From a virus (lineage: Duplodnaviria; Heunggongvirae; Uroviricota; Caudoviricetes): DNA of 64,000 nt. Location of the stretch: the IMG/VR virus record IMGVR_UViG_3300035661_000015, positions 1 through 64,000 of that record; one strand, 5' to 3'. This document shows, in pieces, positions 2,803 to 62,982 of the stretch. Both the position numbers and the translations under genes were made by a program. Within the stretch, counting starts at the first letter, position 1. Every line of letters begins with the position of its first letter. The notes beneath the pieces are model-generated. The model had not been told where the DNA came from. It saw only the letters and a program-made list of their open reading frames with translations, and ran no database searches.

Positions 2803-2992
2803 AGTTTCTTTACATAAATGTATTAGCGGAAGAATTAAAGGTAGAAGCGACCTTTGTTAATTACAGGGGCAATCTAATGAACTATGAGTTAAAACATAGT
2901 GGATGTAGTAGTTGGGACGGCGAAGATCGGCGTTGCAACTGTGGTAATAGGCGAATTTACTAGTCATATAGCGGCAATTTTAAAAACGGTTC

Positions 2993-3358
2993 TTGGGAGG
3001 CAATGGCGGACTAATGTTATTTTTAAGAGACCTAATAAACAAATGTTCTTCTAAATTAGGACGAGATTGTTACACTGTTCCGTTATACGACCTTATAAAA
3101 GAGGCTTATGTATTAGGTTTAAAACACGGAAATATTTGGAGCAATCTTTCAGAGCAAAAACAGAATGAGTTATCTAGTTGGAAGAAAAAGCAAGATAAAA
3201 AGGTGGCCGATACTCAGGGGAAAGATAAGCCCTATTATGGTGCAATTGGTGGGGCCTATACATATAGTCACACCTTTACTTCTTTAGGGGTTGTACTAAC
3301 AGTTAAAAATGGTTATACTGATGATGAATTAGACCTTAGTGATTATGAGGAGTGGTAA
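2993..3358 (+). CDS. Hypothetical protein
   Basis: ORF track only. Confidence 0.4.
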   Translation: MGGNGGLMLFLRDLINKCSSKLGRDCYTVPLYDLIKEAYVLGLKHGNIWSNLSEQKQNELSSWKKKQDKKVADTQGKDKPYYGAIGGAYTYSHTFTSLGVVLTVKNGYTDDELDLSDYEEW

Positions 3359-3558
3359 TGACCAAACTAAAATTCGTTGCAAAGTTTATGAAATATGTTA
3401 CAATTGGATTGTTGGGCATCTGGGGTTTTGCCCAGACCAATCATCTCGTTAACGAGTCTTTAATTCCCCCCTTTGTTGGGGTCGGGCTCTATTTGTTTAT
3501 CGCGTCCTTGTTGATTGTTTTGTTTTTTGAACCTATTTTTAAGGAACTATCAGAATGA
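3352..3558 (+). CDS. Small hydrophobic membrane protein (possible NfeD-like partner of the downstream SPFH protein)
   Basis: Two hydrophobic segments; overlaps the next gene start. Confidence 0.4.
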   Translation: MVMTKLKFVAKFMKYVTIGLLGIWGFAQTNHLVNESLIPPFVGVGLYLFIASLLIVLFFEPIFKELSE

Positions 3559-4451
3559 AAAAGACCCTACTGTTTGCCGCCCTTACCTTTCCTATGTTTT
3601 TCGCCGGTTGTGGCTGTAATACAGTTGAGCCCGGCTATGTGGGTGTTAAAGTGCCCTATTATGGTGATGCTAAAAATCAAGATTATCAACTCGTACGTGG
3701 CGTAGTGTGGTACAACGGATTCACCGAACGTATTTATGAATTCCCCACATTCTTACAAAGTGTTGTGTGGACTAAGGATACTAACGAGGGGTCGCCAACC
3801 GACGAAAGTGTAACTTTTAATTCGGCAGAAGGTGAGGGTGTAAATGTAGATGTAGCATTTAGTTACACCATTCCAGAAGATAAGGTTAGTGATATCTTTA
3901 AGAAACAACGAAAAGAAATTCGCGAATTGACGCATATATTTCTCCGCTCAGAAGTTCGCGATAGTATTGTTCTACATGGTAGTCGATACAAGATTATTCC
4001 TTTGATTGGTCTTGATAAGGAAAAGTTGATTACCGAAGTTAAGGCCGATCTAATTAAAAAGCTTGGACCACAGGGTTATGAAATTAACGCGATTTCATTC
4101 GTGGGTAAGATGCGTGTTGACCCAAAGGTTGAGGCGTCTATTTCGGCCACTATTACACAGTTGAGTAAGACAGTTGAAGCTGAAAATAAAATTAAGCAGA
4201 GTGAGGCAGAGGCCCGCCAATCTGTTGCGGTAGCTAAGGGTAAGGCTGATGCGGAAGTTCAAGAGGCCGAGGGTAAAGCTAAGGCACGTGTAACAATTGC
4301 GGAAGCCGAAGCTAAGGCCAATACCCTTGTACAAAAATCCCTTACCCCCGAAGTATTGGAATTTAATATGCTCAAACAATGGGATGGTAAACTTCCTCAG
4401 GTGATGGGTGGTGGAGTTTCTCCCTTTGTAAATCTCAAGGATCTAAAGTGA
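3555..4451 (+). CDS. SPFH/band-7 (prohibitin/HflK-like) lipoprotein
   Basis: Lipobox FFAGC; C-terminal Ala/Glu/Lys-rich coiled region typical of the SPFH family. Confidence 0.55.
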   Translation: MKKTLLFAALTFPMFFAGCGCNTVEPGYVGVKVPYYGDAKNQDYQLVRGVVWYNGFTERIYEFPTFLQSVVWTKDTNEGSPTDESVTFNSAEGEGVNVDVAFSYTIPEDKVSDIFKKQRKEIRELTHIFLRSEVRDSIVLHGSRYKIIPLIGLDKEKLITEVKADLIKKLGPQGYEINAISFVGKMRVDPKVEASISATITQLSKTVEAENKIKQSEAEARQSVAVAKGKADAEVQEAEGKAKARVTIAEAEAKANTLVQKSLTPEVLEFNMLKQWDGKLPQVMGGGVSPFVNLKDLK

Positions 4452-4467
4452 ACGATAAATATCAACA

Positions 4468-4648: not shown

Positions 4649-4677
4649 ATTGACTTCGTTTTGGATTTCTGATATAA
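4649..4677 (+). promoter_or_regulatory. Sigma70-like promoter (TTGACT-17-TATAAT)
   Basis: Near-consensus hexamers with 17-nt spacing. Confidence 0.5.
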
Positions 4678-4708
4678 TAGGTGAAATAATACTGGTAAAA
4701 TAAATACT

Positions 4709-4731
4709 AAGCGGAGAAAGTTATAGGGGCT
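4709..4731 (+). repeat. Dispersed motif, forward copy (TAAGCGGAGAAAGTTATAGGGGC) followed by a T-run
   Basis: Matches consensus TAAGCGGAGAAAGT-n-GGGGCG. Confidence 0.8.
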
Positions 4732-5810: not shown

Positions 5811-6199
5811 TGATTATTGATAAGTTGATTGAGATCAGAAATAGCAATATGAAAAATGGAAATCAGGAGCTATTACTTAGTTCCTGTTTTTTAATTGGTC
5901 AAATTGAACGCCTACAAGAGCCCACTGAGAAGAATGTAATTAAAATTCTTGAGGCTATGGTCAATACGCCGGAAGGATATTGGCCCAAAGAAATTGAACT
6001 TGCCCGCTCTTTTATCCCGGTCAAGATGAGCGGAGAAAGTATAGGGGCGGCTCTGGACAATATTAGGAGCGAGTTACGGGCATTTGAGAAAGATGGTCCG
6101 GCGGTTGGCTATGCTATTAAGTATCTTAAGGATTTTGGCGAAGCGGACGGTGACATCATTTCAAAGCTGGTTAGGGCGATTCGGGAGAATAATGACTAA
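5807..6199 (+). CDS. Hypothetical protein (contains a forward copy of the dispersed motif in-frame)
   Basis: ORF track. Confidence 0.4.
   Translation: MMIIDKLIEIRNSNMKNGNQELLLSSCFLIGQIERLQEPTEKNVIKILEAMVNTPEGYWPKEIELARSFIPVKMSGESIGAALDNIRSELRAFEKDGPAVGYAIKYLKDFGEADGDIISKLVRAIRENND
6027..6050 (+). repeat. Dispersed motif, forward copy (in-frame in a CDS)
   Basis: TGAGCGGAGAAAGTATAGGGGCGG. Confidence 0.8.
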
Positions 6200-6317
6200 T
6201 GAAAGTTATAAAGAAGTCTAGAGTTCAAGAATTTACTGACATGGTACATTGTACATATGGTGCAGAATTAGAAATAAGGGGAATCGACCTGGATGTTAAT
6301 TATAAATTTAGAGCCCT

Positions 6318-6354
6318 CGCCCCTCGACGACCAACACTTTAATTTCTCCGCTAA
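6318..6354 (-). repeat. Dispersed motif, reverse copy
   Basis: CGCCCC...TTTAATTTCTCCGCTAA. Confidence 0.7.
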
Positions 6355-6976
6355 TGGGCTCGGACCAAACTCGGAACGGGATTCACCCCAAGCCTCAGAG
6401 TCCCAAGATGACTTTTTCCGCTGTCGCCTTAGATTTGAGTATACTTTTAATTATAGGGCGAGCGGAGTTGATGGGATTTTTCAGTGCTATGCTACAGATC
6501 ATAATGATGCAATTAAACAATTTGGAATTCACCTGGGGGAAAAATGAGTAAACCAAACATTTACGATATTAAACACTCTTATAGATTTATTCTTTTTCCA
6601 CAGAAAATATATGTATCAAAAAATTATGGATTACCCTATCATCGATGGGTTTGGTTGAAGTGGGTTATGTTTAGTTATGAGTATATTAATAGAAATAATA
6701 AATCACAATGGATTCTTATTGATAGGACGGTGATGAATTGAAATTCAATAGACGAGTATTAGGGTCCAAAAAAATAAGGTGGGGATTTTTATTCTTTCCG
6801 AAAGATATTCCTATTTATGAAAACGAAATTTTAGTTGGCTATGAATCCGCTTGGCTTAGACCTATTAAGTATACATATGAATATATGCAATATATGAAAA
6901 AGGAGACTCGTCAATATAGATCATTTTATTCTCAAATGGTTTCGGAGTGGGTTTTAATTAATAGGGAAATATTGTA

Positions 6977-7410: not shown

Positions 7411-8586
7411 GTGTCTAAGTTAATTTTTGGCAACCACCAAGAGAATACGTTGACTCAGGTTGATATGGTTATTGACTCGGGGGCCGAACACTTTGTTCTA
7501 TGTGCTGACGGGCACTTGGGTTACGGTCATCCAATCGGCGGAGTCGCCGCTTATAAAAATAAAATTTCCCTTTCGGGTGTTGGTAAAGATATTTCGTGTG
7601 GAAACTTAGCTTCACGGACGACCATGAAAGGCAAAGATTTAGCGGAAAATATAGGGGCGATTATGGATGAAATTGTTGCCAAAATCTCTTGTGGTGTTGG
7701 TCGCAATAATAAGGGGCGTGTCGATTCGCCCGTATTCGATAATCCCCTATTCGCCACCAATGATATTCTCCGCTCACTTTTGCCTATGACTAGAGATCAG
7801 TTTGGAACAATTGGGGCCGGTAATCATTACGTAGACCTTTTTGTTGATGACTCAGATGATTCTGTTTGGATTGGTATTCACTTCGGAAGTAGGGGGCTTG
7901 GATATAAATTTGCTTCCCACTATTTTGATATGGTAAATTATAAGGACGGATATCTTGTAAAGCCCGCCTTATTAGATGCTGACTCTAATGCTGGTCAAGA
8001 ATATTTGGCTGGAATGGAATTGTGTGGAGATTATGCTTACGAGTCAAGGTATTGGGTGGGCCATAAGGTTGCTGAAATTCTTGGGGCAAATATTACTAAA
8101 AGTGTCCACAATCACCATAATTATTGTTGGATAGAAGAACATTTTGGTGAGACCTACTATGTTGTACGTAAAGGGGCAACCCCCGCTTTTCCCGGCCAAC
8201 TTGGTTTTATTGGCGGGTCAATGGGTGATAATGCCGTAATCGTAGAGGGTGTTGAGTCCGAACTATCCAAAAGTACTTTATATAGTACAATTCATGGGGC
8301 CGGTCGTGATTTTAGTCGTGCCGAAGCTAAGGGGCGATACGTCAAAGATGAGAATGGTAAAAAGCAAAGGGGTGTCGGTCGCGTTCGTCACGATGAAATG
8401 CAAAAATGGCTGAATGATAAGGGCGTAGTAGTTCGTGGCGGCGACTTAGACGAGGCCCCACAAGCTTATCGGCGACTTGATGATGTTCTTAAGTTTCACG
8501 AGGGTACAATTAAAATTCTACATACCCTTAGGCCGGTCGGGGTTATGATGGCTGGACCAAATACTTTTGACCCATATAAGGACTAA
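7411..8586 (+). CDS. rtcB: RtcB-family RNA 3'-phosphate/5'-OH ligase
   Basis: CADGH, GSRGLG, NHHNY and IHGAGR motifs characteristic of RtcB. Confidence 0.8.
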   Translation: MSKLIFGNHQENTLTQVDMVIDSGAEHFVLCADGHLGYGHPIGGVAAYKNKISLSGVGKDISCGNLASRTTMKGKDLAENIGAIMDEIVAKISCGVGRNNKGRVDSPVFDNPLFATNDILRSLLPMTRDQFGTIGAGNHYVDLFVDDSDDSVWIGIHFGSRGLGYKFASHYFDMVNYKDGYLVKPALLDADSNAGQEYLAGMELCGDYAYESRYWVGHKVAEILGANITKSVHNHHNYCWIEEHFGETYYVVRKGATPAFPGQLGFIGGSMGDNAVIVEGVESELSKSTLYSTIHGAGRDFSRAEAKGRYVKDENGKKQRGVGRVRHDEMQKWLNDKGVVVRGGDLDEAPQAYRRLDDVLKFHEGTIKILHTLRPVGVMMAGPNTFDPYKD

Positions 8587-10538: not shown

Positions 10539-10548
10539 TACCAATTAA

Positions 10549-10577
10549 AAAAGCCGCCCATAAGGCGGCTTCTTTTG
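10549..10577. terminator. Bidirectional rho-independent terminator between convergent genes
   Basis: AAGCCGCC-cataa-GGCGGCTT followed by CTTTT. Confidence 0.7.
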
Positions 10578-10641
10578 TTAGCGGAGAAATATATGGGGGC
10601 GTTTTCGAGGGGTCGCCCACCCCCTTTACTTTCTCCGCTTA
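10578..10641. repeat. Adjacent forward/reverse motif pair forming a long hairpin between convergent genes
   Basis: TTAGCGGAGAAATATATGGGGGCG ... CGCCCACCCCCTTTACTTTCTCCGCTTA. Confidence 0.8.
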
Positions 10642-11445: not shown

Positions 11446-13911
11446 TTAAGCAACCTTTCTCGCCCTTCGGCGATCATCAAAAATATTTTTATCTAAATTA
11501 AGTTCAACACGTCTTCTTCTAATTATATTCCAAATTTGCGGAACGATTGACGGATAATATCCGTCTAACGCCCCAGTATCTTGACCATCATGACCAGCTT
11601 TTTTATAAAGTTTATTAGTTGGTCTCCAACCTAACCTAATCTGTGTAATCAGATCTCTAACAATATTTGGATAAGCCACAACATTATTTTTTAGGTAAAC
11701 CGCAAGAGCCTGATAGTCTGCGACGGCACTAACAGCCGTATTTCCATTTGATCCCCAGCCACCTGTTGATGGAATATATTTAGTATAGGCTTTAGATAAA
11801 TCTCTAGTACTATCATAAAATTGCGGATCGGCGTAAATATCTGTAGTTTCCGAAGATGGAGCCGTTGTAAACATAACTATTCTACCAACTGTTCCGCTTG
11901 TAATTGTTCCACCAATAGATGCAACAGTTAAGCTGGTGGCCGAAGAAAGCACTGGGGTGGTCGTCGTAACAATAACGCCATTAAAATTAATTACCGCCCC
12001 GGCATTATTTAGGGCGTTTCCAGGTGTATTTATAGAAATGGTTGTTCCGGACGATACGGTTGAGTTACATGTAATTCCGAACGTATTGCCGAACTTATAA
12101 CCCTTTTTACTTAATGCTGTATTATAATTATAAGTGCCTGTAGATGTAGTTAAATTGTAACCACCATTATATCCGCAATTAGCTGGCAAGACGATATCTG
12201 GTTTATCAATACTTAAACAACCCACTAATAAATTTAAAGTACTAGGAGTGGTAAGACCATAAGATAAATTAGATCTTAAAGAAGCGATTGAACCAGCAGG
12301 TGAAGAACCGCCCAGGTCACCTAAAACGAAAGCCCCCTGAAAACCCGACCCTGTATCAATATTGGCGGTATTATGGTTAAGATATATAGTTGTATTTGCA
12401 TCGGATTTTGTAAAATTAAATACAGATCCACTTGAACCCGGTTTTGCCGGATTTATATTAGGGAGCGATAGGTTATTAATACACCTAATAGTCGTAGCTG
12501 AAACTGTTGCCCAGTTAGTTTCCATATAGTAAAGGGCCGCATTATTTCCGTTATGGTAACTTTGATACACGTTGCCCGAAAAAGCCCCAATATCTCCCGA
12601 TCCGGTACTAAAGGCCCCTGTATGATTCTGTAACTGAATAATATTTGGGTCATTATTAGTAGCGGCGTCAGACAAAATAATATTATCGGTCATCGGCCCC
12701 TGACAAATCATACTAGCACCAGTGTGTTTTATAAAATTATTTGTAAAAGAGGTCCATCGTCCAGCGGCGATTGTACTGTTAACTACTGGAGCTATATTAC
12801 TATCACCAGCCGCACCGTAAGCAAGTATATTTCCAGTAATATTCCAATAGGCAAATCCATTGGCCGAAGTCGCAAGCCTTTTATCTATAGCGTTTCCAGA
12901 AAGAATTCTATTTCCACTTGTATAGCTCGCTCCCCCTTTTAAACTAATAACGTCAGAACCAACACTATTAGTAAAAATATTGCCAGAAATAGTTGCACTA
13001 TGAGTAGCTGTAGGGGCAGTAGTATAAAAAATAGGAGTAGCACAGTTATCAAATGTACAGTTAGTAATATTTAAAGTTGTTTCACCGCCGTACATCGGAA
13101 CAATCCCGGTTGCCGAAGTGTCACCATATTGAAAGTCCGTATAGGTAATATTAACATTTCTCAGCGTAGCTGATTCTGTAAAATATAATTTTGAAGAACT
13201 CGAAGATCCCTTAACGCTAACATGGCTTCCGGAAGTCCCTGCAAAGGTTACATCACTCGCCCTACCTGTAGAATCACTATAAATAACCCATCGGAACGGA
13301 CCTGTACCTGTCGTAGTAATTGCTCCGCCCGGCTCTATATATAAGTCACCAGACTGTAGAACTTTTGCCCCTAATGTTAATGTAGCACCACTCGCAATCC
13401 TTAATGTTGAAACAGGTTTTGAGTTTAGGCCAATTGTTAAATCAAATGTAGCTGACGTGTTTCCGAAAGATTGATTAGTATCAACAGTCAGCGTATGACC
13501 AAATGGAAGGGCCGAAACACCCGAAGCTATAGAACCAGTTAAAGCCGTAACAGGAATAGTTGTATCACCAACACTGGCGGCGGCTGTACTGGTCGTTGTA
13601 ACCGCTCCGAATGTCATACTTGTTCCACTTGGAATTGGTGAAATTAGAGCCGTTATATTTAAAAGTGTAGCACCGGCTGTTTTAGTCGTTCCGGTTGTGG
13701 TAACAGTTGTATAATTAACAACAACCGTATCCAAGTTCGTATGATCCGGAACTCTTCCGTTAGGAACGCCCGACCCAATTACCCACCACGGTCCAGCAAT
13801 CGTAGTATCAGACCAATTACCACTTCTTTGCGTAGTATAAGACGCCCCAAAAACACTCATCCCCAATGTTAAAAATAATGTAAATAAAAGCCCAATCTTA
13901 AAAATTCTCAT
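11446..13911 (-). CDS. Tailspike/tail-fibre protein with right-handed parallel beta-helix (pectate-lyase-like) repeats; N-terminal signal-like segment
   Basis: Repeated NxTxxN/ITNC-type beta-helix rungs; 821 aa. Confidence 0.6.
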   Translation of the reverse strand: MRIFKIGLLFTLFLTLGMSVFGASYTTQRSGNWSDTTIAGPWWVIGSGVPNGRVPDHTNLDTVVVNYTTVTTTGTTKTAGATLLNITALISPIPSGTSMTFGAVTTTSTAAASVGDTTIPVTALTGSIASGVSALPFGHTLTVDTNQSFGNTSATFDLTIGLNSKPVSTLRIASGATLTLGAKVLQSGDLYIEPGGAITTTGTGPFRWVIYSDSTGRASDVTFAGTSGSHVSVKGSSSSSKLYFTESATLRNVNITYTDFQYGDTSATGIVPMYGGETTLNITNCTFDNCATPIFYTTAPTATHSATISGNIFTNSVGSDVISLKGGASYTSGNRILSGNAIDKRLATSANGFAYWNITGNILAYGAAGDSNIAPVVNSTIAAGRWTSFTNNFIKHTGASMICQGPMTDNIILSDAATNNDPNIIQLQNHTGAFSTGSGDIGAFSGNVYQSYHNGNNAALYYMETNWATVSATTIRCINNLSLPNINPAKPGSSGSVFNFTKSDANTTIYLNHNTANIDTGSGFQGAFVLGDLGGSSPAGSIASLRSNLSYGLTTPSTLNLLVGCLSIDKPDIVLPANCGYNGGYNLTTSTGTYNYNTALSKKGYKFGNTFGITCNSTVSSGTTISINTPGNALNNAGAVINFNGVIVTTTTPVLSSATSLTVASIGGTITSGTVGRIVMFTTAPSSETTDIYADPQFYDSTRDLSKAYTKYIPSTGGWGSNGNTAVSAVADYQALAVYLKNNVVAYPNIVRDLITQIRLGWRPTNKLYKKAGHDGQDTGALDGYYPSIVPQIWNIIRRRRVELNLDKNIFDDRRRARKVA

Positions 13912-14226: not shown

Positions 14227-14245
14227 TAGATTTATATGCTATAAT
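14217..14245 (+). promoter_or_regulatory. Sigma70-like promoter (TTGACT-17-TATAAT) upstream of the motif-bounded cassette
   Basis: Consensus hexamers. Confidence 0.55.
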
Positions 14246-14273
14246 AGAACGAACTTGTAGTAGTAAATACACT

Positions 14274-14690: not shown

Positions 14691-14736
14691 AGGGGCTTCG
14701 CCCCACACCTCAACATCCTTTAGAAGGAAATTTTAA

Positions 14737-51792: not shown

Positions 51793-52025
51793 TACTATAC
51801 TTGATCTGGTTAACGATTATAAAATTGATAAAGCACTTGATTTTTCTAATAGAGAAGAAAAGTCTTTATTTGGCATGGTTTATTTTTTTTGAAACAGGTC
51901 AAGTTATATTGGAAACAGTGGAGTTTCTTGATCTTAAATACTTTTCCAATATGGGTGAATTTGAAAAGTTTATCATGAATGAGATTAATAGAATTAAAAC
52001 TCTAGAAAAGAATTGAAATTTTAAT

Positions 52026-53689: not shown

Positions 53690-54253
53690 ATGGACATTTT
53701 GAACCACAAGACTTTGGTCCTAAATCAGTGCGGTACTCCCATAAAGTGCTTGCATTGGTCTAGGGCCATTAGTCTTGTTTATGTGAGAAATAAGGCAACT
53801 GTTTTAAATTATTATGATATTAAACTTAGGGCGGGTCACGGTAAAAATTATCCCTTACCTGCTGTTATTATTCTCAAGAAGTATGTTCGTCAAAACTATC
53901 TTCATGTTGGAATATCTAAGCGGAAAATATATGTGAGGGACAAATATGAGTGCCAGTATTGCGGCGAACGGCTAAAACAAGACGGTCTGACCATTGATCA
54001 TATTATTCCAAAATCCTTCTTTAAAAAGGGGCCGCAGGTGGCGGTCGATGGAAAGCAGTTGGTCAATTCGGGCTCTTGGCGTAATTTAATCACGTCATGT
54101 AAGCCATGTAATACGAAAAAGGGCAATCGGACCCCCGAGCAGGCGGGCATGAACCTCTTGACTTTGCCCCGTATTCCTGATAGAATAGAGATCAAGTTGG
54201 GACTCTTAAGTGAAAGTTTTCCAGATGAATGGAGAAATTACATTGCAGTTTAA
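53690..54253 (+). CDS. HNH endonuclease
   Basis: CQYCGERL...DHIIPKS...CKPCNTKKGN. Confidence 0.65.
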   Translation: MDILNHKTLVLNQCGTPIKCLHWSRAISLVYVRNKATVLNYYDIKLRAGHGKNYPLPAVIILKKYVRQNYLHVGISKRKIYVRDKYECQYCGERLKQDGLTIDHIIPKSFFKKGPQVAVDGKQLVNSGSWRNLITSCKPCNTKKGNRTPEQAGMNLLTLPRIPDRIEIKLGLLSESFPDEWRNYIAV

Positions 54254-54523
54254 AATCATTAAAGATAGCGATACTATTGAGAATGTTGTAGATTTCCTTA
54301 TGGATAACGACTGTTTTTATATTGTTGAGACCGAAGGTGGTGAAATTAAAATTCTATCACAAGTCTCGTTGGTATATAGTTGTTATAAAAGGATTATCCA
54401 AGTAATGTCGGGACCGAATGAACTTTTGGCCCAGGGTATTGGGGCACTTTTAAAAAGGATCGAAGCCCTTGAAGATGCTACATTTTCTTTCCCAATCCTT
54501 AAGTAAAAAGGATAAGTGAAAAA

Positions 54524-55657
54524 GTGTTAAATCCAAATAATTCCATCATTGATTCTGGATATAAATTTGTTCTCTCAATTACGGGGGGTGGTCAAGAGAT
54601 TATTGGCGAACTTACAAAATATGGGGGTATGTCATCATGTCTTCTAGAATGTAATGTGCCGTATTCTCAACCCGCCCTTGAAAAACTTATCGGTCACCTA
54701 CCAACTAAAACTGTAAGTAAAGAGACCGCACTTAAATTAGCTATGGTGAGCTATCTTAGAGCAAAAGAGTATACGGGCGAAAATAAAAATATTTATGGAA
54801 TTGGCGTGACCTCCTCTTTGGTAAAGCTGGACGGTGAACGAGGTGGGCGTGAACATAAGGTCTGTATTGGTTTACATGGTACAAATACTTATTACCTTGA
54901 AATTATTTTAAAGCAGAATCGAACGAGATTAGAAGAAGAAGAGTTGGTTTCAAATATCATTGGGGCGATTTTAGAATATGCTGGTTATGAGTTCGATATA
55001 TTTGTGAATTGTTCTAGAAGTCAAATTAATGGACTTTTATCTACCTTAGACTTTTTTAATATTGAACTTGGGTTTTTTAAGTCTGAATATAATAATGCCT
55101 ACATATTTTTAAAAGATGGTCTAGCTGCTAGTCAGTGTGAAACTCCGCTTAATCCAACACTCTTTCCTGTTTCTATGAATCCACTTCATAGTGGGCACAT
55201 TACTATAAAAGAGTTTTATGAAAAAAAATACGATAAAACTGTTTATTATGAACTATGTCTAAAAAACGCCGACAAAGGACAGCTTGATTTTATTTCAACC
55301 CAAGAAAGAATTAAACAGGTTAATGAATTGTTTATTACAAACTTACCTTTGTTTATTGATAAATTTAACAAATTTCCTTATTCGTCTTTTTTAATGGGGG
55401 TCGATACCTTTCATCGTATCCTTAATCCTAAATACTATAACTTAGAGACTATTAGAGATGTAATTAAAAAATACAACCATCACTTTGATCGTAGATCGTC
55501 TCTACATATTTTTAATAGAGTTGGTTACGAGGGAACTTATAATTATCTTAAGGGCTACCTTGAAGCCCTAGATCTTGATTGTTCTGGTATCATTTTTGAA
55601 GATGATTTTATTCCAACAGACATTTCTTCTACTAAAATCAGAAAAGGGCAGCTATGA
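54524..55657 (+). CDS. Bifunctional CinA/PncC-like domain plus NMN adenylyltransferase (HxGH, ISSTKIR)
   Basis: N-terminal SITGGG...ECNVPYS (CinA C-terminal-domain-like); C-terminal NPLHSGH and ISSTKIR. Confidence 0.7.
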   Translation: MLNPNNSIIDSGYKFVLSITGGGQEIIGELTKYGGMSSCLLECNVPYSQPALEKLIGHLPTKTVSKETALKLAMVSYLRAKEYTGENKNIYGIGVTSSLVKLDGERGGREHKVCIGLHGTNTYYLEIILKQNRTRLEEEELVSNIIGAILEYAGYEFDIFVNCSRSQINGLLSTLDFFNIELGFFKSEYNNAYIFLKDGLAASQCETPLNPTLFPVSMNPLHSGHITIKEFYEKKYDKTVYYELCLKNADKGQLDFISTQERIKQVNELFITNLPLFIDKFNKFPYSSFLMGVDTFHRILNPKYYNLETIRDVIKKYNHHFDRRSSLHIFNRVGYEGTYNYLKGYLEALDLDCSGIIFEDDFIPTDISSTKIRKGQL

Positions 55658-57240
55658 ACCTCAACACTTTTTTAAGTGGCCCACGAAAGATCCCCGTACC
55701 ACTACGCGGCGACTTTTATACCGTCACAAGTGCCCCCGTTATTTCCAAATCAGCTAAGCGGAGAAGTGTGTATAATTTTACTAATCGTGTTAGTCCAATG
55801 ACCGGCCTTCCACAGGGCGTTGCGGGCGACTCACGTATGGTTCTTTTTGGACTGACCGATTTTATCCAGCGGGAATTGATTTGCCCAATTAATTATAGTG
55901 ATATATCCGACACGGCGGATTTCTTAAAAGATGCCCACTCTTTTGGCGACCCAGTCCCCTTTGATAAACAAATGTGGATTCGTGTGTTAGATAAGTACAA
56001 TGGTTTTTTGCCAATTGAGATTAAGGCCCTTCCGGAATGCTCTACTTTTTGGCCCAATGAGCCCATAATTGAAGTCCAATCTTTGGACGAGGGGTTTGGG
56101 GAAATCGCCGCAATTATAGAGGCCAACTTAGTTGGCATGGTTTCTTGTGCAACGGCCCGCCTAACCTTAAGTCGCCACCTATTTAAGAGAATGCAACAGC
56201 AAGTTAAAAAGTACAACCCCTCCTATTCCTCCGCTCAAGTTGATAGCATAGCATCCTTTATGGTTCACGATTTTGGAATGAGGGCATCATCTACGCCGGA
56301 AGAAGCTGAAATTTATGGTGTAGCTCACCTTTTAGCCGGATTTAATGGTACGGATACGACAAGTGCAGCATATTTAGTACGAAAGAATGGTGCCCCTAGT
56401 CCTATCGGCACGAGTATTTTGGCCCTAGCCCATCGTATTGTACAGAGTCACGACGAAGAACAAAGTTCTTTTGAGGCTCTTTTTAATGCAAGTCAAGGTA
56501 CGATTGGGAGTTATGTGGGCGATTGTTATAATTTTAATAATGCGGTCGATAAATTCCTTGTAGAGATTGCCCTAAGAACTAAGACAATTGTAGTTGCTCG
56601 TCCTGATAGTGGCGATTATATTAAAAATATGCTCTATGTGGTTGACACGGCTATCAAGCACGACCTTTTTACCATTTCGCGAGATGGATTAAAAGAAGCT
56701 ACTAATCTACGTTATATTTTGGGCGACTCAATGACTTGGGCTAAAATGTGGGAAAGTTTTCAAGTCCTAGAACGCCGTGGTGTAAATCCAACAGGTTTTG
56801 GTATTTTTGGGGTTGGGGGCTGGATGCGTAATAGCGTTAATCGCGATAGCCTTTCTTCCGCTTATAAATTGGCCGAACATGGTTCATATCCAGATTTTAA
56901 GAAGGTAGTAAAACTTTCCGAGATTGCCGCTAAAATGTCGATTCCCGGCCAAACAAAGATTTTGCGGGGCAACTTGGTTGGAAAATCCCCCACAGTTGTT
57001 GCAATTGAAGAACCGGGAGAGGACCAGAGAGTTGTTTATTATAGGGGCGATATGGGTGAAAAGAGTTTCTTGGCTCCATGTCTAGAAGATTTTAATACGA
57101 AGCGGCAACGGTGTATTGAAGAGTTTGATAGCTATACTCATGTAAACTGTGATTATGGGACCAGAAACTTTTTGCCAACATCAAAGGCTATTCGAGATTT
57201 TCAACAAGAGGCAATTAATAAATACAGGGGTAACAAGTGA
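55654..57240 (+). CDS. nadV: Nicotinamide phosphoribosyltransferase (NAMPT/NadV)
   Basis: HDFGMRASSTPEEAEIYGVAHLLAGFNGTDT matches the NAMPT core. Confidence 0.75.
   Translation: MNLNTFLSGPRKIPVPLRGDFYTVTSAPVISKSAKRRSVYNFTNRVSPMTGLPQGVAGDSRMVLFGLTDFIQRELICPINYSDISDTADFLKDAHSFGDPVPFDKQMWIRVLDKYNGFLPIEIKALPECSTFWPNEPIIEVQSLDEGFGEIAAIIEANLVGMVSCATARLTLSRHLFKRMQQQVKKYNPSYSSAQVDSIASFMVHDFGMRASSTPEEAEIYGVAHLLAGFNGTDTTSAAYLVRKNGAPSPIGTSILALAHRIVQSHDEEQSSFEALFNASQGTIGSYVGDCYNFNNAVDKFLVEIALRTKTIVVARPDSGDYIKNMLYVVDTAIKHDLFTISRDGLKEATNLRYILGDSMTWAKMWESFQVLERRGVNPTGFGIFGVGGWMRNSVNRDSLSSAYKLAEHGSYPDFKKVVKLSEIAAKMSIPGQTKILRGNLVGKSPTVVAIEEPGEDQRVVYYRGDMGEKSFLAPCLEDFNTKRQRCIEEFDSYTHVNCDYGTRNFLPTSKAIRDFQQEAINKYRGNK
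55755..55773 (+). repeat. Dispersed motif, degenerate forward copy (in the NAMPT CDS)
   Basis: CTAAGCGGAGAAGTGTGTAT. Confidence 0.5.
56214..56236 (-). repeat. Dispersed motif, degenerate reverse copy (in the NAMPT CDS)
   Basis: CAACCCCTCCTATTCCTCCGCTCA. Confidence 0.45.
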
Positions 57241-57782
57241 TTACTATTGAATATATAAATGGCGATCTTTTTAATGATGATAATGATGTAATCGCACATG
57301 GTTGTAACTGTTCGGGCGGATTTGGTTCGGGTGTTGCGGGTATTATCTCTAGAGAATTCCCAGAGGCGAGAGCTAATTATATTAAAAAACATATGGTGGG
57401 TGAATTAAGTCTAGGTCAAATTTTCTTTGTAGAGACCGATAGTGTTCATCCTGAATATATTGTTAATATGATGACTCAGCAAAATTATGGCGGGGACAAA
57501 ACTGTCGTTTATGTTAGCTATGAAGCTATTCGTGAATGCTTTAGGGGCCTATTTAAAAGTATTGATTTCTTTTTTTCTCACCGCTATGAGACCGCGTACA
57601 GTGAACCTGACGGAGAATATATGTATGCGACTAGCAAACCTATTACTATTGCTATTCCTAAAATTGGTTCGGGCCTAGCTAATGGTGACTGGGTAGAGAT
57701 TCATGAAATTATAAAAGAGGTAGTAGAAGAGTTATCTGATTTCTGTTCTTTGAACATGGTCTTGAAAATTTACTCACTATAA
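57237..57782 (+). CDS. Macro-domain protein (ADP-ribose binding/processing)
   Basis: DVIAHGCNCSGGFGSGVAGII. Confidence 0.7.
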   Translation: MITIEYINGDLFNDDNDVIAHGCNCSGGFGSGVAGIISREFPEARANYIKKHMVGELSLGQIFFVETDSVHPEYIVNMMTQQNYGGDKTVVYVSYEAIRECFRGLFKSIDFFFSHRYETAYSEPDGEYMYATSKPITIAIPKIGSGLANGDWVEIHEIIKEVVEELSDFCSLNMVLKIYSL

Positions 57783-57808
57783 GCGGAGAAAGTAAATGTA
57801 TGGGGCGA
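57780..57808 (+). repeat. Dispersed motif, forward copy supplying SD+ATG of phoH
   Basis: TAAGCGGAGAAAGTAAATGTATGGGGCG. Confidence 0.8.
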
Positions 57809-58627
57809 AGTAACAGACGGGGGTCTAAAAACCCACAACGTAAAGAGCGTTACGAAGAACAACAAAATAAAAATAATGGCGGGGTATCTAATATGCGTGG
57901 AAAGCCAAGGCACTTATCACAACCAACCGAGTCGCGGCCCATTGAAATTAAAAAGGTGCCGCGTTTTACCAGCATTGATGGGGCGACCGAAAACCAGAAG
58001 AAGGTGATTAGGGCGATTCACACTAATGATATTATTTTTATTGAGGGTCCAGCCGGAACAGGTAAAACCACATTAGCTATTGGGGTTTCGGTTGAAAGAC
58101 TCGCAAAAGGTTTGACACAGCGTATTATTTTATGTAGACCGGCCCTTGAAGCTAATGGCGAACGTATTGGTTTCGAGCCTGGAACGGGTACTGATAAGCT
58201 AGGCCCCTATACAACGCCCTTCTTTCAAGCTTTAAATAAATTTGTCGATGGTGAAACATTGACAACGTGGCAGAAAGAGGGTAAGATTAGTATTGTTCCG
58301 TTCTCGTATATGCGTGGACAGAATCTTGATGGCGATATTATTTTGGACGAAGGTCAAAATTGTAAGTTTGAACAATTATATTTATTTTTGACTCGTATGT
58401 GTAAAGATAGTAAGGTTATGATTACTTATGACTTGCTTCAGTCCGACCTTCCCTATTATGAAGATATTACGGTTGGGGAAGTTTGTAGAGAACTATCTAA
58501 GGAAGATGGGATTGTTCACTGTCAGTTAGATGATACGGATAATCAGCGTCACCCCCAGGTGAGAAAAATTATTAAAGCATTTGGACGACTAAGAGAAAGA
58601 CGCAAAAATGATTCTAAGAGACTATAA
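57800..58627 (+). CDS. phoH: PhoH-family ATPase
   Basis: GPAGTGKTTLAI ... ILDEGQN. Confidence 0.8.
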   Translation: MGRSNRRGSKNPQRKERYEEQQNKNNGGVSNMRGKPRHLSQPTESRPIEIKKVPRFTSIDGATENQKKVIRAIHTNDIIFIEGPAGTGKTTLAIGVSVERLAKGLTQRIILCRPALEANGERIGFEPGTGTDKLGPYTTPFFQALNKFVDGETLTTWQKEGKISIVPFSYMRGQNLDGDIILDEGQNCKFEQLYLFLTRMCKDSKVMITYDLLQSDLPYYEDITVGEVCRELSKEDGIVHCQLDDTDNQRHPQVRKIIKAFGRLRERRKNDSKRL

Positions 58628-59034: not shown

Positions 59035-59394
59035 ATGATTAGCGGAGAATTAAAGGGGCGTGTCGTAAACACAATTAAAATTGGCGATGACGACCGTATT
59101 AAAACCACCTGTATTAAGTGTTCGGCCCCCTTGTTAGAATTTATTAAAAGTCACGTCTCTAAAGATGATAAAAATAACACCGATTGGCAGGTTCGGGCCG
59201 ACTGCCCCCATTGTGGGGGTAAATCCATTATTCATAAACTTCATTGTGCAAAATTTTCACTTGGCCCGGTCCTTGAAAATGGAGAAGAAACGCCCTATAC
59301 TTTGATGGATCAGCAATATGTTGATACTGATAGAAATGGAAATGTTGTTTTTGCTTTTCAAACCACTGTTGGAAAGAAATGGGGTGTCTCTTGA
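59035..59394 (+). CDS. Hypothetical Zn-ribbon protein (start inside the forward motif)
   Basis: CIKC...CPHCGG. Confidence 0.4.
   Translation: MISGELKGRVVNTIKIGDDDRIKTTCIKCSAPLLEFIKSHVSKDDKNNTDWQVRADCPHCGGKSIIHKLHCAKFSLGPVLENGEETPYTLMDQQYVDTDRNGNVVFAFQTTVGKKWGVS
59039..59060 (+). repeat. Dispersed motif, forward copy (ORF start inside it)
   Basis: TTAGCGGAGAATTAAAGGGGCG. Confidence 0.75.
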
Positions 59395-59828
59395 ATAAGA
59401 AGAATGATTTTAGTGTTGATCATCGCAACGACAGTACTATTAAAATGGTGTCGGGCGGAAATATTAAATTTGTCTCACAAACAGAGCGGTCAATCCCCCC
59501 TATTACTTCTTCCGCTTATCTTGACGTAAAGTCAAAGCCTACAAAGGATAGTAACGTAGCATATGCCAAAACCGATATTTTTCAGAGCGGTGCCACTGTT
59601 TATTATGTGCGTAAATATGCCGATGGTCCACATACTGGTCTTTTGGTTGACCCAATTAATAATGGGATAATTTTAAATATGGACGCCCCTACTAACTCGA
59701 ATAATGGTCCAGCTTATCCTTTCGTATCCGTCTCACAGGAATGTTTTAATAACTACATTGTCTACCTTGTAAAGAAAAACCCCAATTATTACTTACAAGC
59801 AAATCGACTAATTCAGAAAGGTGTTTAA
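59379..59828 (+). CDS. Hypothetical protein
   Basis: ORF track. Confidence 0.4.
   Translation: MGCLLNKKNDFSVDHRNDSTIKMVSGGNIKFVSQTERSIPPITSSAYLDVKSKPTKDSNVAYAKTDIFQSGATVYYVRKYADGPHTGLLVDPINNGIILNMDAPTNSNNGPAYPFVSVSQECFNNYIVYLVKKNPNYYLQANRLIQKGV
59495..59518 (-). repeat. Dispersed motif, degenerate reverse copy
   Basis: CCCCCCTATTACTTCTTCCGCTTA. Confidence 0.5.
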
Positions 59829-60190: not shown

Positions 60191-60437
60191 TTTTATTTAA
60201 CCCTAAAAGTGGGGATGTAAAATTCTTTAATGGTTTTGATCCATCTGGCTATATTTTATTTGGCGAGAATAATGGGCGTATAAACACTAATTATAAAACC
60301 ATTGAAGTTATAAAAGAATCTTTAAGAATTCATTCTTCCCCATATGTGGTTCTTGGTACACTTAAAGATATTGCTAAATTTTATCATAATAACTTTGGTA
60401 AACCGAATACAGATCTCAATCTAGACAGAGATTTTTA

Positions 60438-60905
60438 ATGAGTGAAAAAAGAAGTGCTAAGTCATGCTATCAATCAAATTTTGGGGGCGGTTTTATCACT
60501 GGCCCCCAACTTGTTGCTGAGAAGGTTTTTGCCCTTAGGGCTTTCGCTGAGAAAAAACAATTAAAAGATCGATTTTGGCAAGATGACTTATATAAAAAGG
60601 ATTTTATTTTTCAGTGTAAGTTGGCAAATGATCTATTAAGTGGAAAAGGTAAAGGGGGCGGTCCCTATGAAATTTCCACAATTCTCAACGTACTTAATGG
60701 CGAATCCGTCAAATTCAAAAAGATTAAAAGTCTTGGGGCGTTATATGCACTAGGGCCACTACTAAGGGCCGAACAAGCACGCCAAGATAAAGAGGCGGCG
60801 ACACTTGAGGTCGCTACCCCCATTATTGAACCCGAAATTATATTGGAGACTCGGCCCCAAATAAATAAGAAAATATCACTTTTAGATAAATTAAAGGGAC
60901 TGTAA
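60438..60905 (+). CDS. Hypothetical protein
   Basis: ORF track. Confidence 0.4.
   Translation: MSEKRSAKSCYQSNFGGGFITGPQLVAEKVFALRAFAEKKQLKDRFWQDDLYKKDFIFQCKLANDLLSGKGKGGGPYEISTILNVLNGESVKFKKIKSLGALYALGPLLRAEQARQDKEAATLEVATPIIEPEIILETRPQINKKISLLDKLKGL
60636..60661 (+). repeat. Dispersed motif, degenerate forward copy
   Basis: TTAAGTGGAAAAGGTAAAGGGGGCGG. Confidence 0.45.
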
Positions 60906-61975
60906 TGGCTAGACCTAAAAAAGCAGATAAGGTCGAGGAAGTCGTAGAAAACAAAATTAAGAAATCATGTTTTGATTTAGTGAGAGCACAGGTTGAAAAA
61001 AGTTTTGGTAAGAATATTTTAAAAAGTGGCGACGCTGTATTGGATGAAAAAACTATTATTATTCCACTCTCACCCGCCCTCGATATCGGATTAGGTGGCG
61101 GAATCCCGGAAGGTACTTGGGGAATTTTTACAGGCCCTCCAAAACTCGGCAAGACGACCACCATGTTGTCTTTCGCGGCTAACGCCCAAAAACCTGAATT
61201 TGGTGGTAGAAATGTATACTACTTCAAAGTTGAAGGTCGTCTATCTAAAAAGAATTTAGAAATTGCTGGCCTCGATATGTCTAAGCTACAAATTATTGAA
61301 AGTACGGAAGAAAAGATTTTAACAGCCGAAGATATTTTGCAGATTGCGGAAATTGCAATCATGACAGATCCCGGTTGTGTTATTATCATTGATAGCTATA
61401 GCTCTCTATGCACAAACTCCGAAATGTCGAATGAAATCAAATCAAATTCAAGGTCAGACGCCCCTAAGCTTTTATATAATTTTACACGAAAAATGGGACA
61501 GGTTGTTCCACTTAAAAAATGTATTGTTATTGGCGTAATGAAAATTATTGCGAATACTTCGGGGTACGGTGCTTCGGAAATGGAGCAAGGGGGAGGGGCA
61601 CTTAAGTTTCAAGAAGATTGGAAAATTCGTTGTATTAGAAAAGAACTTTGTCATCTTAATGACGATAAAACCCAAACCGCTACAGGGCAGATTGTTACTT
61701 GGAGAATTCTAAATTCAGTACTTGGAGCACCTGGGGCTGAAGTAACTTCTCATATTAAATATGGGATTGGCGTAGATAGTGTGAGAGAAATTTGCGATAT
61801 TGCAATTGATATGAATATCATAGTTAAGGGCGGATCGTGGTTTAATATTTTGCCGGAAGAGAATGAAGATAAATTAAAATTTCAGGGAATGGCTGACCTT
61901 ATGGAATATATCGAATCTAATCCAGATGTTTTTGAACAAATTAATACTAGGGTAAGGAATATGTTATATGCCTAA
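60905..61975 (+). CDS. RecA-family recombinase (UvsX/RecA-like)
   Basis: Walker A GPPKLGKTT in RecA-like context; overall layout. Confidence 0.7.
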   Translation: MARPKKADKVEEVVENKIKKSCFDLVRAQVEKSFGKNILKSGDAVLDEKTIIIPLSPALDIGLGGGIPEGTWGIFTGPPKLGKTTTMLSFAANAQKPEFGGRNVYYFKVEGRLSKKNLEIAGLDMSKLQIIESTEEKILTAEDILQIAEIAIMTDPGCVIIIDSYSSLCTNSEMSNEIKSNSRSDAPKLLYNFTRKMGQVVPLKKCIVIGVMKIIANTSGYGASEMEQGGGALKFQEDWKIRCIRKELCHLNDDKTQTATGQIVTWRILNSVLGAPGAEVTSHIKYGIGVDSVREICDIAIDMNIIVKGGSWFNILPEENEDKLKFQGMADLMEYIESNPDVFEQINTRVRNMLYA

Positions 61976-62268
61976 ACAACTTGGTGACCTACTTTTAGTA
62001 TATGAAACCGATTATCGAGAGGTTGATGATTTTATCTCAGATTATTTTGGTAAAAATTACGAGATGCAAGATTTTGGTGAATATTCTAATGGTGACAACG
62101 AATTGTTTAACTTAAAGAAAGGTGATGACTACGATTGTACCAAAAATGTTATGGATTGGTTATTAGGAAATAGAAAATCGGTTTGGTTACGAGATATTAT
62201 GCAATATCTTGTTAATCATGATGTTATTTTGTCCGGCAATTACATTATTAATATAAGTTGGTAAATAT

Positions 62269-62982
62269 ATGCACTATCTCGGCGGTAAATCGCAAATAGC
62301 TAAAGAACTTTGTTCTTATATAAAAACACGATTAGTACCAGGACAACCTTATAATGAACCATTTGTTGGAGCTTGCTGGACAATGCAAGAAATTTCTGGC
62401 CCCAACGAAAGGGTTTGTAATGGTAGCGATATTCATGGTGACCTCATAGCTCTACTAAAAGCACTTCAGGATGGATGGATTCCGCCAGATATTGTTAGTG
62501 AACAAGAGTACCGTAACGTCATGCTTAATTATAGAAAAAATAAGAATGATTATTCGGCGATACGTGGTTTTATGGGGTTCGGATGTTCTTTTGCGGGAAG
62601 ATTTTTTGAGGGGTATGCTAGATGTAAGAATAGTAGAAACTATGCACTTTCCGCTAAAAGATCTTTGTTGAAAAAATTACCGAATATACAAAATGTAAAT
62701 TTCTCTCAAAAAGATTATAAAGAATATATTCATAATACTGGTGATTTATTTTATTGTGATCCGCCATACGAAGGAACAAAAAACTTTAGTCATAAATTCA
62801 ATCATAAAGATTTTTGGGATTGGGTTAGAGTGATGTCAAAAAATAATACGGTCTTAGTTTCCGAATATAATGCTCCCGAAGATTTTAAAATTGTTTGGCA
62901 AAAAGAAGTAAAGACAAAGATGGCAGATATAAATAATAATAAAATACAAAGAGTTGAAAAACTTTGGGAATTAATTAAATGA
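62269..62982 (+). CDS. dam: DNA adenine methyltransferase (Dam-like; DPPY)
   Basis: N-terminal YLGGKSQIA and DPPY motifs. Confidence 0.75.
   Translation: MHYLGGKSQIAKELCSYIKTRLVPGQPYNEPFVGACWTMQEISGPNERVCNGSDIHGDLIALLKALQDGWIPPDIVSEQEYRNVMLNYRKNKNDYSAIRGFMGFGCSFAGRFFEGYARCKNSRNYALSAKRSLLKKLPNIQNVNFSQKDYKEYIHNTGDLFYCDPPYEGTKNFSHKFNHKDFWDWVRVMSKNNTVLVSEYNAPEDFKIVWQKEVKTKMADINNNKIQRVEKLWELIK

Follow-up and report, generated by a model that had tools for sequence, protein, structure and literature searches.

The 64,000-nucleotide stretch considered here (the window: positions 1 to 64,000 of IMG/VR record IMGVR_UViG_3300035661_000015, a virus of the Caudoviricetes) raises the question of why one motif of two boxes should recur in it in alternating orientations, between genes as well as inside them, how its copies came to be there and what reads them. 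The initial annotation saw in this motif a mobile or regulatory inverted-repeat system, with insertions resembling MITEs (miniature inverted-repeat transposable elements) or Rickettsia palindromic elements (RPEs), mobile promoter/stem-loop (PeSL) cassettes and long-range RNA duplexes as candidates. The copies are found here to face inward in pairs and to have arisen in place by base substitution, their motif being shared by a clade of related phages; the explanation that we favour, tentatively and short of calling it probable, is an asymmetric site read on duplex DNA by a clade-specific protein that acts on two inverted copies at once. The window (GC content about 38%) belongs to a large uncultured phage; a nucleotide search of it against 50,697 phage records gave no match, and the best protein matches in cultured phages are about 24-30% identical. 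For the motif statistics, 10 kb from the same contig (L007) were added to the window, giving about 74 kb of a genome of about 129 kb, an identical RecA being on record for a JGI contig of 128.9 kb.

Form, abundance and orientation of the motif

Each copy, about 25 bp long and asymmetric, consists of Box 1 (T-N-AGCGGAGAAA) and a G-box, GGGGCG(A), with 3-7 nt of AT-rich spacer between them, and copies occur at a density of about one per 1.3 kb. The word TAAGCGGAGAAAG, with up to two mismatches, gave 31 matches against 1.66 expected, a number never reached by shuffled sequences, and a 16-column weight matrix applied to the window plus 10 kb recovered 48 sites at 9 bits or more (2.9 expected) and 34 at 15 bits or more (0.4 expected). 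With a pattern free of hand selection, T-N-AGCGGA-R-R, 56 sites were obtained in the same sequence against 2.0 expected, 47 of them within the window. Recurrence beyond chance, which had been claimed from reading by eye and for which a weight-matrix scan had been proposed, is thus borne out by word counts, matrix and shuffles alike. Every copy that had been called clear, forward or reverse, was recovered to within 1 base, and the degenerate copies, both forward (2823, 17671, 38005, 49159, 53917 and 55755) and reverse (18528, 24115, 52335, 56214 and 59495), proved to be real variants (AGCGGAAGAA, AGCGGAAAAT and AGCGGAAAGT). The copy at 60636 is the weakest, consisting of AGTGGAAAAG plus a G-box, and the earlier list was incomplete, having missed copies at 3948 (minus), 7641 (plus) and 7774 (minus), 27065 (minus), 38135 (minus) and a few more.

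Among 29 strong copies, which had been selected for no more than one mismatch to the core AGCGGAGAAA, none varies at any of the ten core positions or at the T at position -2, which played no part in the selection; position -1 is never C. Information is zero immediately outside this T, while inward of the core it decays slowly, through K-W-W-A and then a G-run at variable distance, reaching background 25 nt inside Box 1; across copies, Box 1 and the G-box are 1 to 19 nt apart. An invariant core with a sharp outer edge suggests the footprint of a sequence-specific reader rather than a helix depending on complementarity alone. Furthermore, the recurrent variants AGCGGAAGAA and AGCGGAAAAT are found on forward and reverse arms alike, which fits a DNA site, since G-U tolerance in RNA would be asymmetric between strands.

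Exact copies within coding sequence are read in all three frames of both strands (sense 3/2/3, antisense 2/3/6), so that the conserved unit must be a nucleic acid, as had been supposed, and a peptide repeat is ruled out. Gene ends and intergenic DNA hold 34% of the sites against 16%, a twofold enrichment (P=7e-4); about two thirds of the copies (37/56) lie deep in coding sequence with no preferred position along the gene.

The behaviour of the copies as inverted pairs, the central claim of the initial annotation, was confirmed when their alternation was compared with shuffled orientations. In the 56-site set, which counts 26 minus-strand members in a gene block lying largely on the plus strand, 44 orientation runs were counted against 28.9±3.7 expected, a value reached by none of 20000 shuffles. 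The median gap is 487 bp from a forward copy to the following reverse copy (convergent) and 1839 bp from a reverse copy to the following forward copy (divergent; Mann-Whitney P=3e-5), and the same test with exact-core copies alone gave P=1.3e-4. Each reverse copy has a forward copy on its left, and some pairs are nested. All tight units share one polarity, with Box 1 outward and the G-box inward, and none has Box 1 inside. The centres of the pairs are spaced 3.9 kb apart on average and more evenly than by chance (coefficient of variation 0.51 against 0.92, P=0.0016).

The inverted symmetry of the unit extends further inward, as shown by the G-rich words. GGGCGA and GGGGCG occur 94 and 71 times against 25 and 23 expected from a second-order Markov model, on both strands and in all frames, a three- to fourfold excess that becomes about tenfold for GGGGCG when base composition alone is considered; most of them stand apart from Box 1 copies, to which roughly one fifth are joined. 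Their orientations come in runs (57 against 74.7±6.1 expected, P=0.002), they are denser inside pairs than outside (3.6 against 1.7 per kb), and they point inward from either end of a pair: even at distances above 60 nt from Box 1, those in forward orientation are found closer to the forward copy and those in reverse orientation closer to the reverse copy (P=0.017). Words so oriented resemble accessory sites.

Origin of the copies and their distribution among related phages

Insertion was considered as the source of the copies. Among 20 pairs, none is flanked by a direct repeat of 3 bp or more under any of three assumed boundaries, and flank repeats of 2 bp occur in 3-4 of the 20. The interiors of the pairs are mutually unrelated genes or gene parts (dCMP deaminase, Nudix, portions of RtcB, NAMPT and primase, and others). 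RtcB aligns without gaps over aa 25-102 with residues 57-137 of Pyrococcus horikoshii RtcB, a stretch that spans the forward copy (aa 77-85), and the interior of this pair, which includes the conserved SCGVG segment, has no insertion relative to that protein. In the primase (copies at aa 141-150 and 334-343), the reverse copy, read as TFSAH, aligns without gaps with the orthologue of a related phage (L010), and the forward copy falls where the protein of the window phage is shorter, not longer, than this orthologue. The domain match of the Nudix protein (aa 69-183 in the best of the structure alignments) includes its reverse copy (LLSPL, aa 173-180), which is followed by a C-terminal EQWEW stretch that matches another Nudix structure; the NAMPT pair is contained in an unbroken match to the NAMPT family. 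Since homologues show no indels at the copies and the copies lie inside domain matches, they arose by substitution in place. Pairs of two weak copies are located in the most constrained genes, RtcB, NAMPT and primase, which suggests that a pair is wanted in the neighbourhood despite its cost to the protein.

In-frame insertion of MITE-like or RPE-like elements, as first envisaged, is therefore contradicted by the missing duplications, the unrelated interiors and the lack of added residues: a MITE or Correia-type element was rejected because sequence is shared at the ends alone, with information at background 25 nt inside Box 1, and an RPE because no residues are added in the RtcB, primase and Nudix copies. 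For an empty-site comparison, the sequences at hand are contigs of the phage itself, identical where compared, and, next nearest, relatives whose RecA is only about 50% identical. Invertons that preserve reading frames were also rejected, as inverted interiors have stops in every frame except in the three shortest pairs (60, 130 and 42 bp). Non-canonical splicing of the intervals by the phage RtcB was set aside as well, because conserved catalytic regions fall within the intervals, whose length from core to core is not in every case divisible by 3. Finally, GC content is 0.396 inside and 0.373 outside pairs, a small excess attributed to the extra G-rich words rather than to foreign interiors.

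A subtler form of mobility, in which a clade enzyme, encoded outside the region covered, would use Box 1 as terminal inverted repeat and the G-boxes as subterminal binding sites to invert, excise or exchange the segment between two inverted copies, a cassette exchange between co-infecting phages, is quite unlikely. The sharp outer edge, the outermost Box 1 and the oriented subterminal G-rich words do match the architecture of such ends, as do the varying length of the interiors, the nesting of pairs and the lineage-linked drift of the consensus. Two pairs, moreover, bracket complete accessory genes, as had been noted: 14273-14690 encloses a whole gene and 17671-18550 the minus-strand gene 17741-18358. 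The other two brackets described with them fared less well, since the reverse copy of 39972-40783 falls inside the Nudix domain and the forward copy of 43029-43405 lies within ORF (open reading frame) 42951-43379, unless a GTG start near 43052 is used. Besides the absence of target-site duplications, the unrelated interiors and the stop codons just described, recombinase ends are opposed by the copies inside conserved domains, where excision or inversion would destroy RtcB, NAMPT, primase and Nudix, and by the lack of any recombinase or transposase among the genes called in the 74 kb. Independent contigs of the phage from other samples are also identical to the window where compared (L009, over its first 1 kb), and four contigs of a related phage (L010-L013) are identical to one another without rearrangement; Logan contig SRR11723145_179113 (71.6 kb) and short JGI contigs carry the sequence of the window, and a protein of L005 is identical to its counterpart in the window.

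Three related uncultured phages, with RecA 49-52% identical, share the core TTAGCGG followed by a purine run. The contigs found through RecA are syntenic (PhoH, Zn-ribbon protein, RecA, DnaB, primase, nuclease, dUTPase and Pol III alpha). In L010 the top 8-mer enriched de novo is ATTAGCGG, the consensus reads (C)ATA-TTAGCGGAAAAA, and convergent pairs are seen at 2235/2402, 7065/8399, 16069/16451 and perhaps 9899/10282; in L014, where ATTAGCGG is among the top words, the consensus is TTAGCGG(G/A)... and T[ATG]AGCG[AG] occurs at 14 sites (13 of them TTAGCG) against 4.6 expected. L194/L195 have a few copies, with GGGGCGA enriched. The positions of copies are not conserved at orthologous genes, so that copies turn over while the consensus drifts in concert. 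Elsewhere the motif was absent from 80 IMG/VR RecA loci, a search of IMG/VR with the hairpin pattern gave two matches, both unrelated, and searches for relatives through rIIA in IMG/VR and through Nudix gave none, a rIIA homologue (P0187) leading to an unrelated phage without the motif. A host-derived repeat was rejected, because TAAGCGGAGAAAGT-N(1-8)-GGGG had only single-copy matches over 185,579 species genomes and JGI metagenomes, with at most two motif-like words per locus. Judged from these comparisons the motif is lineage-specific, and the phage group carrying it is previously undescribed.

The part of the motif conserved in the clade, AGCGG or TTAGCGG, contains the Chi sequence of Bacillus subtilis AddAB (AGCGG). 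On this view a helicase-nuclease would read the invariant AGCGG within a longer context, inward-facing copies protecting both flanks of an intervening break and loading the phage RecA. Like bacterial Chi, the sites occur inside genes in all frames and both orientations with fairly even spacing; the phage encodes RecA and a PD-(D/E)XK nuclease, and convergent geometry would be the active orientation for enzymes leaving a break within the pair, if the polarity of Escherichia coli Chi applies. Nevertheless, of 125 AGCGG words about 56 are in motif copies, leaving about 69 against about 60 expected, which is barely an enrichment; known Chi sites are 5-8 nt long rather than 12 nt plus a G-box, and neither tight pairing nor hairpins of 46-64 bp are predicted. 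The chance of a Chi-like or repair signal appears slim, below that of recombinase ends.

What may read the paired copies

Convergent copies on one transcript could also anneal as RNA. In such panhandles a 12-bp Box 1 helix and a G-box helix, separated by an internal loop, would make about two helical turns, serving in RNase III-type processing, as stabilisers or as closures of mRNA segments, the adjacent pairs being ordinary hairpins or terminators. We regard this as possible, if doubtful. Inverted orientation, closeness within a transcription unit and proper nesting are what intramolecular pairing needs, and G-box and C-box words run forward-then-reverse inside pairs. In all five short units tested the forward:reverse stem closes the minimum-free-energy fold (z -2.1 to -4.7). 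Local hairpins are formed by 2 units, the adjacent pairs, which fold at -30.6 kcal/mol (z -3.0) and -24.1 kcal/mol (z -4.7); their description as terminator-like holds for 38005-38050, which is followed by U6, and fails for 10578-10641, which has no U-tract and stands beside a separate canonical terminator at 10547-10575. The density of about one pair per 3-4 kb resembles that of RNase III sites in T7.

The arrangement of two promoters is also in keeping with panhandles. Those at 4650-4678 and 14217-14245 are nearly identical, strong and near the sigma-70-type consensus (TTGACT-17-TGnTATAAT), and each lies 30-32 nt upstream of a forward copy, which is thereby placed about 22-24 nt into the transcript; the one-gene unit started at 14217-14245 ends with a reverse copy (14668-14690) covering its stop codon. 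The other strong promoters (25602, 39732, 43461 and 51301) are not so placed relative to a forward copy.

The geometry thus fits RNA pairing well, whereas the evolutionary signatures do not. Duplex energy is -30.9 kcal/mol for partners and -30.5 kcal/mol for non-partners (permutation P=0.37), flank and spacer identity is not higher between partners than between non-partners (P=0.26 and 0.48), position -1 matches in 5 of 14 strong pairs, and the lengths of the spacers from Box 1 to the G-box are unmatched between partners. The search for compensatory change between partners yielded one possible double change, at position 9 of the RtcB pair. Long-range duplexes as first proposed therefore keep their inverted geometry and the folding of short units, and lack partner-specific complementarity. 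Nor does pairing alone need one consensus over more than 50 copies with concerted drift in relatives, or a uniform polarity, given that reverse-then-forward copies would pair equally well. The same variants on both arms show no G-U asymmetry. With about two thirds of the copies deep in coding sequence, cleavage would destroy the RtcB, NAMPT and primase mRNAs, and on the plus strand a strong terminator (17726-17741 and a T-run) stands between the arms of 17671/18550.

Promoters lie upstream of the motif where they adjoin it, and only 2 of about 30 forward copies are within 35 nt of a strong one; no -35 or -10 hexamer was found within Box 1, spacer or G-box. PeSL-like cassettes are thus unsupported, the motif containing no promoter, about two thirds of its copies being deep in coding sequence and half being antisense. 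It is very improbable that the motif is itself a promoter for a phage-specific transcription factor or RNA polymerase, with Box 1 as recognition element, the AT spacer as melting region, the G-run as start and the reverse copies driving antisense RNAs. A conserved 12-mer, a TATA-like spacer and GGGG resemble promoters of single-subunit polymerases, and sites are enriched twofold at gene ends and in intergenic regions. Against this, the forward copy supplies a Shine-Dalgarno sequence and ATG to four genes (14288, 36670, 39987 and 57800), whose start codon stands between Box 1 and the G-box with Box 1 as the Shine-Dalgarno, so that their mRNA must begin upstream of the motif. At least five such genes had been counted; the ATG of the fifth, 59035, is upstream of Box 1, which makes the motif codons 2-5 of that gene instead of its Shine-Dalgarno. 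Box 1 and the G-box, moreover, are separated by the variable 1-19 nt noted above, half of the copies face against the unidirectional gene block, two pairs face each other over 42-60 bp, and no polymerase or sigma candidate was found in the 74 kb, where the largest protein without a family match (821 aa) reads as beta-helix-type. Small antisense genes started by reverse copies were rejected too, since few such copies have a start codon at ribosome-binding distance (usually GTG/TTG) and three such ORFs exceed 30 codons.

Taken together, the asymmetric invariant core, the sharp edge, the strand-symmetric variants and the lack of pairwise co-evolution, along with fixed polarity, inward accessory words, in-place origin, even spacing and lineage-wide drift, point to a sequence-specific reader acting on two copies. 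We infer that this reader is a protein and that it acts on DNA. The motif would be a cis-acting site, written into the genome by base substitution under selection rather than by insertion, and read on duplex DNA by a sequence-specific protein which the phage clade encodes. The working unit would be two inverted copies, forming a palindrome in two halves that the protein bridges or loops together across 40-1500 bp, and such units would punctuate the genome every 3-4 kb or so, within or outside genes. If dispersed operator sites are taken as a model, these units would most probably serve to control or insulate transcription genome-wide, and they could also mark recombination or replication sites.

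Several points weigh against a DNA-bound protein of this kind. No candidate for it, and no recombinase, transposase or obvious repressor, was seen in the 74 kb, and with respect to restriction of the motif to early or late modules this coverage is of about 74 of 129 kb. A looping protein alone does not need strictly inverted sites at variable distance, and nesting, hairpin pairs and forward copies after promoters are explained equally well or better by RNA pairing. Moreover, known stoperators, the dispersed repressor sites of mycobacteriophages, are mostly intergenic and co-oriented with transcription, unlike the copies in the window.

A bolder proposal, which we consider unlikely although not negligible, is that the inward-facing pairs form a grid over the whole genome, placed by selection even within genes for essential enzymes, which virulent phages of this clade use as substrates of a dedicated machine. 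In its DNA form a synapsing enzyme would start recombination or replication, or swap bounded segments between co-infecting genomes; in its RNA form a sequence-specific factor would read programmed long-range mRNA panhandles. Either form, if true, would be a genome punctuation not described for any phage.

If a protein does read the pairs, a large phage would have a new way of organising at least 100 kb of DNA, with a signal whose strength outweighs codon choice in the RtcB, NAMPT, primase and Nudix genes, and a defined DNA site would be available for fishing out the regulator or enzyme. Members of the clade could also be recognised in metagenomes by the sequence of the motif. In addition, inverted repeats read through in frame need not be scars of mobile elements, which bears on automated MITE and inverton calls in viruses.

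Catalogue of copies, neighbouring genes and known systems

Table 1. Motif copies and pairs located in the window
Feature	Coordinates	Strand	Remarks
Pair: forward 2823-2836, reverse 3937-3950	2823-3950		Forward TTAGCGGAAGAATT (variant B); reverse TGAGCGGAGAAATA on minus
Forward copy TAAGCGGAGAAAGTTATAGGGGC	4708-4730	+	30-32 nt after promoter 4650-4678
Possible weak partner of 4708-4730	6413-6422	-	
Pair: forward 6027-6049, reverse 6319-6354	6027-6354		Spans two gene junctions
Weak pair: forward 7639-7659, reverse 7744-7776	7639-7776		RtcB gene; forward TTAGCGGAAAATATAGGGGCG, encoding LAENIGA
Adjacent pair	10578-10641		64-nt hairpin between convergent genes; separate bidirectional terminator 10547-10575 adjoins
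Pair around 129-aa dCMP-deaminase-like gene	14273-14690		Forward is Shine-Dalgarno and ATG 14288; promoter 14217-14245; stop codon within spacer of reverse 14668-14690
Weak pair: forward 17671-17687, reverse 18529-18550	17671-18550		Around minus-strand gene 17741-18358
Outer pair: forward 21055-21068, reverse 24116-24129	21055-24129		Arms match over 16 nt, CTGTAAGCGGAGAAAT; neither with G-box; holds seven genes, nested pair 22248-22381 and weak forward copy 23638
Nested pair: forward 22248-22266, reverse 22358-22381	22248-22381		In 191-aa ORF
Weak reverse 27045-27067, weak forward 27134-27156	27045-27156		TROVE/Ro-like gene; divergent neighbours
Pair: forward 29439-29466, reverse 30446-30459	29439-30459		Spans three small genes
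Pair: forward 31220-31243, reverse 31692-31711	31220-31711		In 235-aa ORF
Weak unpaired forward copy (TGAGCGGAAAATGT...)	34183-34218	+	
Outer pair: forward 36652-36674, reverse 38120-38137	36652-38137		Forward is Shine-Dalgarno and ATG 36670; reverse is signal-peptide codons of gene 38080; encloses hairpin 38005-38050
Adjacent pair	38005-38050		46-nt hairpin then T6, terminator-like
Pair: forward 39972-39997, reverse 40764-40783	39972-40783		Forward is Shine-Dalgarno and ATG of 89-aa gene; reverse in Nudix domain (LLSPL, aa 173-180)
Pair: forward 43029-43050, reverse 43381-43405	43029-43405		24-nt arms, 92% complementary; then hairpin 43408-43420
Pair: forward 45661-45681, reverse 46146-46171	45661-46171		Forward at 3' end of HAD hydrolase gene; reverse in next gene, upstream of HNH gene
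Weak wide pair: forward 49159-49176, reverse 52335-52353	49159-52353		Forward in NrdA (variant AGCGGAAAAT)
Pair: forward 52912-52945, reverse 53005-53028	52912-53028		In 180-aa ORF
Weak outer pair: forward 53917-53939, reverse 56851-56864	53917-56864		Encloses weak NAMPT-gene pair 55755-56237
Forward copy	57780-57807	+	TAA is stop of Macro-domain gene; Shine-Dalgarno and ATG (57800) of PhoH
Weak reverse copy (TTAGCGGAAAGTGC)	62644-62657	-	Adenine methyltransferase gene; bracket partner of 57780-57807
Pair: forward 59039-59060, reverse 59495-59518	59039-59518		Forward is codons 2-9 of gene 59035; reverse (variant B) in gene 59379

Small hairpins of the form GGGGC-N3-6-GCCCC lie immediately outside two reverse copies (14692-14704 and 43408-43420), and the hairpin 17726-17741 beside the forward copy 17671, followed by a T-run, looks like the terminator of rIIB. 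A Rfam search of the whole window at gathering thresholds matched tRNAs and no other RNA family.

The genes of the window include rIIA/rIIB, RtcB, a TROVE/Ro-like protein, thymidylate synthase, DHFR, NrdA/NrdB, NAMPT, an NMNAT-like protein, Macro, Nudix, PhoH and RecA, with five to seven tRNA or tRNA-like genes; DnaB, primase, the PD-(D/E)XK nuclease and dUTPase lie just past it. Its left end, 1-2800, has about 50% GC against 38% elsewhere and a periodic GGC-rich sequence, and by coordinate arithmetic the Logan contig stops short of it; weak Imm5-like matches under the Pfam cut-off were given by two of its ORFs, 1514-2320 and 2320-2802, and this end may be a different module or an assembly junction.

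Directly 5' of the TROVE/Ro-like gene (26721-28409) is a non-coding stretch of 1.25 kb (25464-26721), which holds a consensus promoter (25602-25630), tRNA-like elements (26221-26301 and 26374-26438) and a weak tmRNA-like match (26058-26154). Along with RtcB (7411-8586), this stretch may encode a Y-RNA-like partner of Ro. In the NrdA/NrdB region (46641-51304), NrdA (915 aa) contains an intein with a LAGLIDADG endonuclease, and the family match of NrdB (638 aa) is split by a large internal stretch. HNH endonuclease genes at 46294-46644 and 53690-54253 each lie a short way downstream of a motif pair. The NMNAT-like, NAMPT, Macro-domain and Nudix proteins (54524-58627 and 40243-40905) make up a set for NAD salvage and repair that resembles the NAD reconstitution pathways of phage counter-defence. 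Two dCMP/cytidine deaminase-like genes are present, at 14288-14677 and 42378-42923, the first exactly bracketed by a motif pair. The largest ORF without a family match (11446-13911, minus strand; 821 aa), part of a short block of minus-strand genes with motif pairs at its borders, begins with a signal-peptide-like sequence and is rich in T, S, G and N; its sequence suggests to us a secreted protein of beta-helix type, for the surface or the tail, and not a polymerase.

Several known systems share features with the motif. Families of the MITE, Correia and RPE type share sequence over their full length, add DNA or residues at the insertion point and are usually accompanied by target duplications. 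The window resembles them in its terminal inverted repeats of about 25 bp, palindromic units of 46-64 bp and occasional in-frame read-through, and differs in having unrelated genes as interiors, no duplications and no indels relative to homologues. The DNA uptake sequences (DUS) of Neisseria, the uptake signal sequences (USS) of Haemophilus and Chi are short, oriented words over-represented genome-wide, inverted DUS or USS pairs doubling as terminator hairpins. Like them, the motif is embedded by substitution in coding sequence in all frames; they are, however, host-genome signals for uptake or for RecBCD/AddAB, no uptake process applies to a phage, and they have neither a second box nor a rule of convergent pairs at 40-1500 bp. 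The RNase III sites of T7, about one per 3-4 kb, share a consensus and a bipartite stem with an internal loop, and are local intergenic hairpins. Pairs in the window have a similar density and a bipartite stem, whereas most of their arms are hundreds of nt apart and inside ORFs, and Rfam matched tRNAs only.

The PeSLs of T4-type phages combine a sigma-70-like promoter with a local stem-loop as intergenic, co-oriented direct repeats that take in the stop codon of the upstream gene, a stem-loop with a G-tract and a C-tract, and the following gene's Shine-Dalgarno and start, and have been implicated in modular shuffling (PMC2839356). A few forward copies of the window have the same junction layout after strong sigma-70-type promoters; in contrast to PeSLs, the motif has no promoter, is reversed in half of its copies, lies mostly in coding sequence and has arms up to 1.5 kb apart.

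Stoperators lie mainly in short intergenic gaps. In cluster A mycobacteriophages such as L5 and Bxb1 they are asymmetric repressor sites of 13-14 bp dispersed over the genome (PMC6550527, PMC9283540), predominantly in one orientation relative to transcription, and their motifs co-vary with their repressors, being similar but not identical across relatives (PMC6550527). The copies of the window differ in forming convergent pairs, in being two thirds deep in coding sequence and in having a second G-rich box, and no repressor homologue was recognised among the genes of the 74 kb. As in those phages, dozens of copies of one asymmetric site of 12-14 bp are present with a consensus that tracks the lineage, and by this analogy stoperators are the nearest precedent for the motif.

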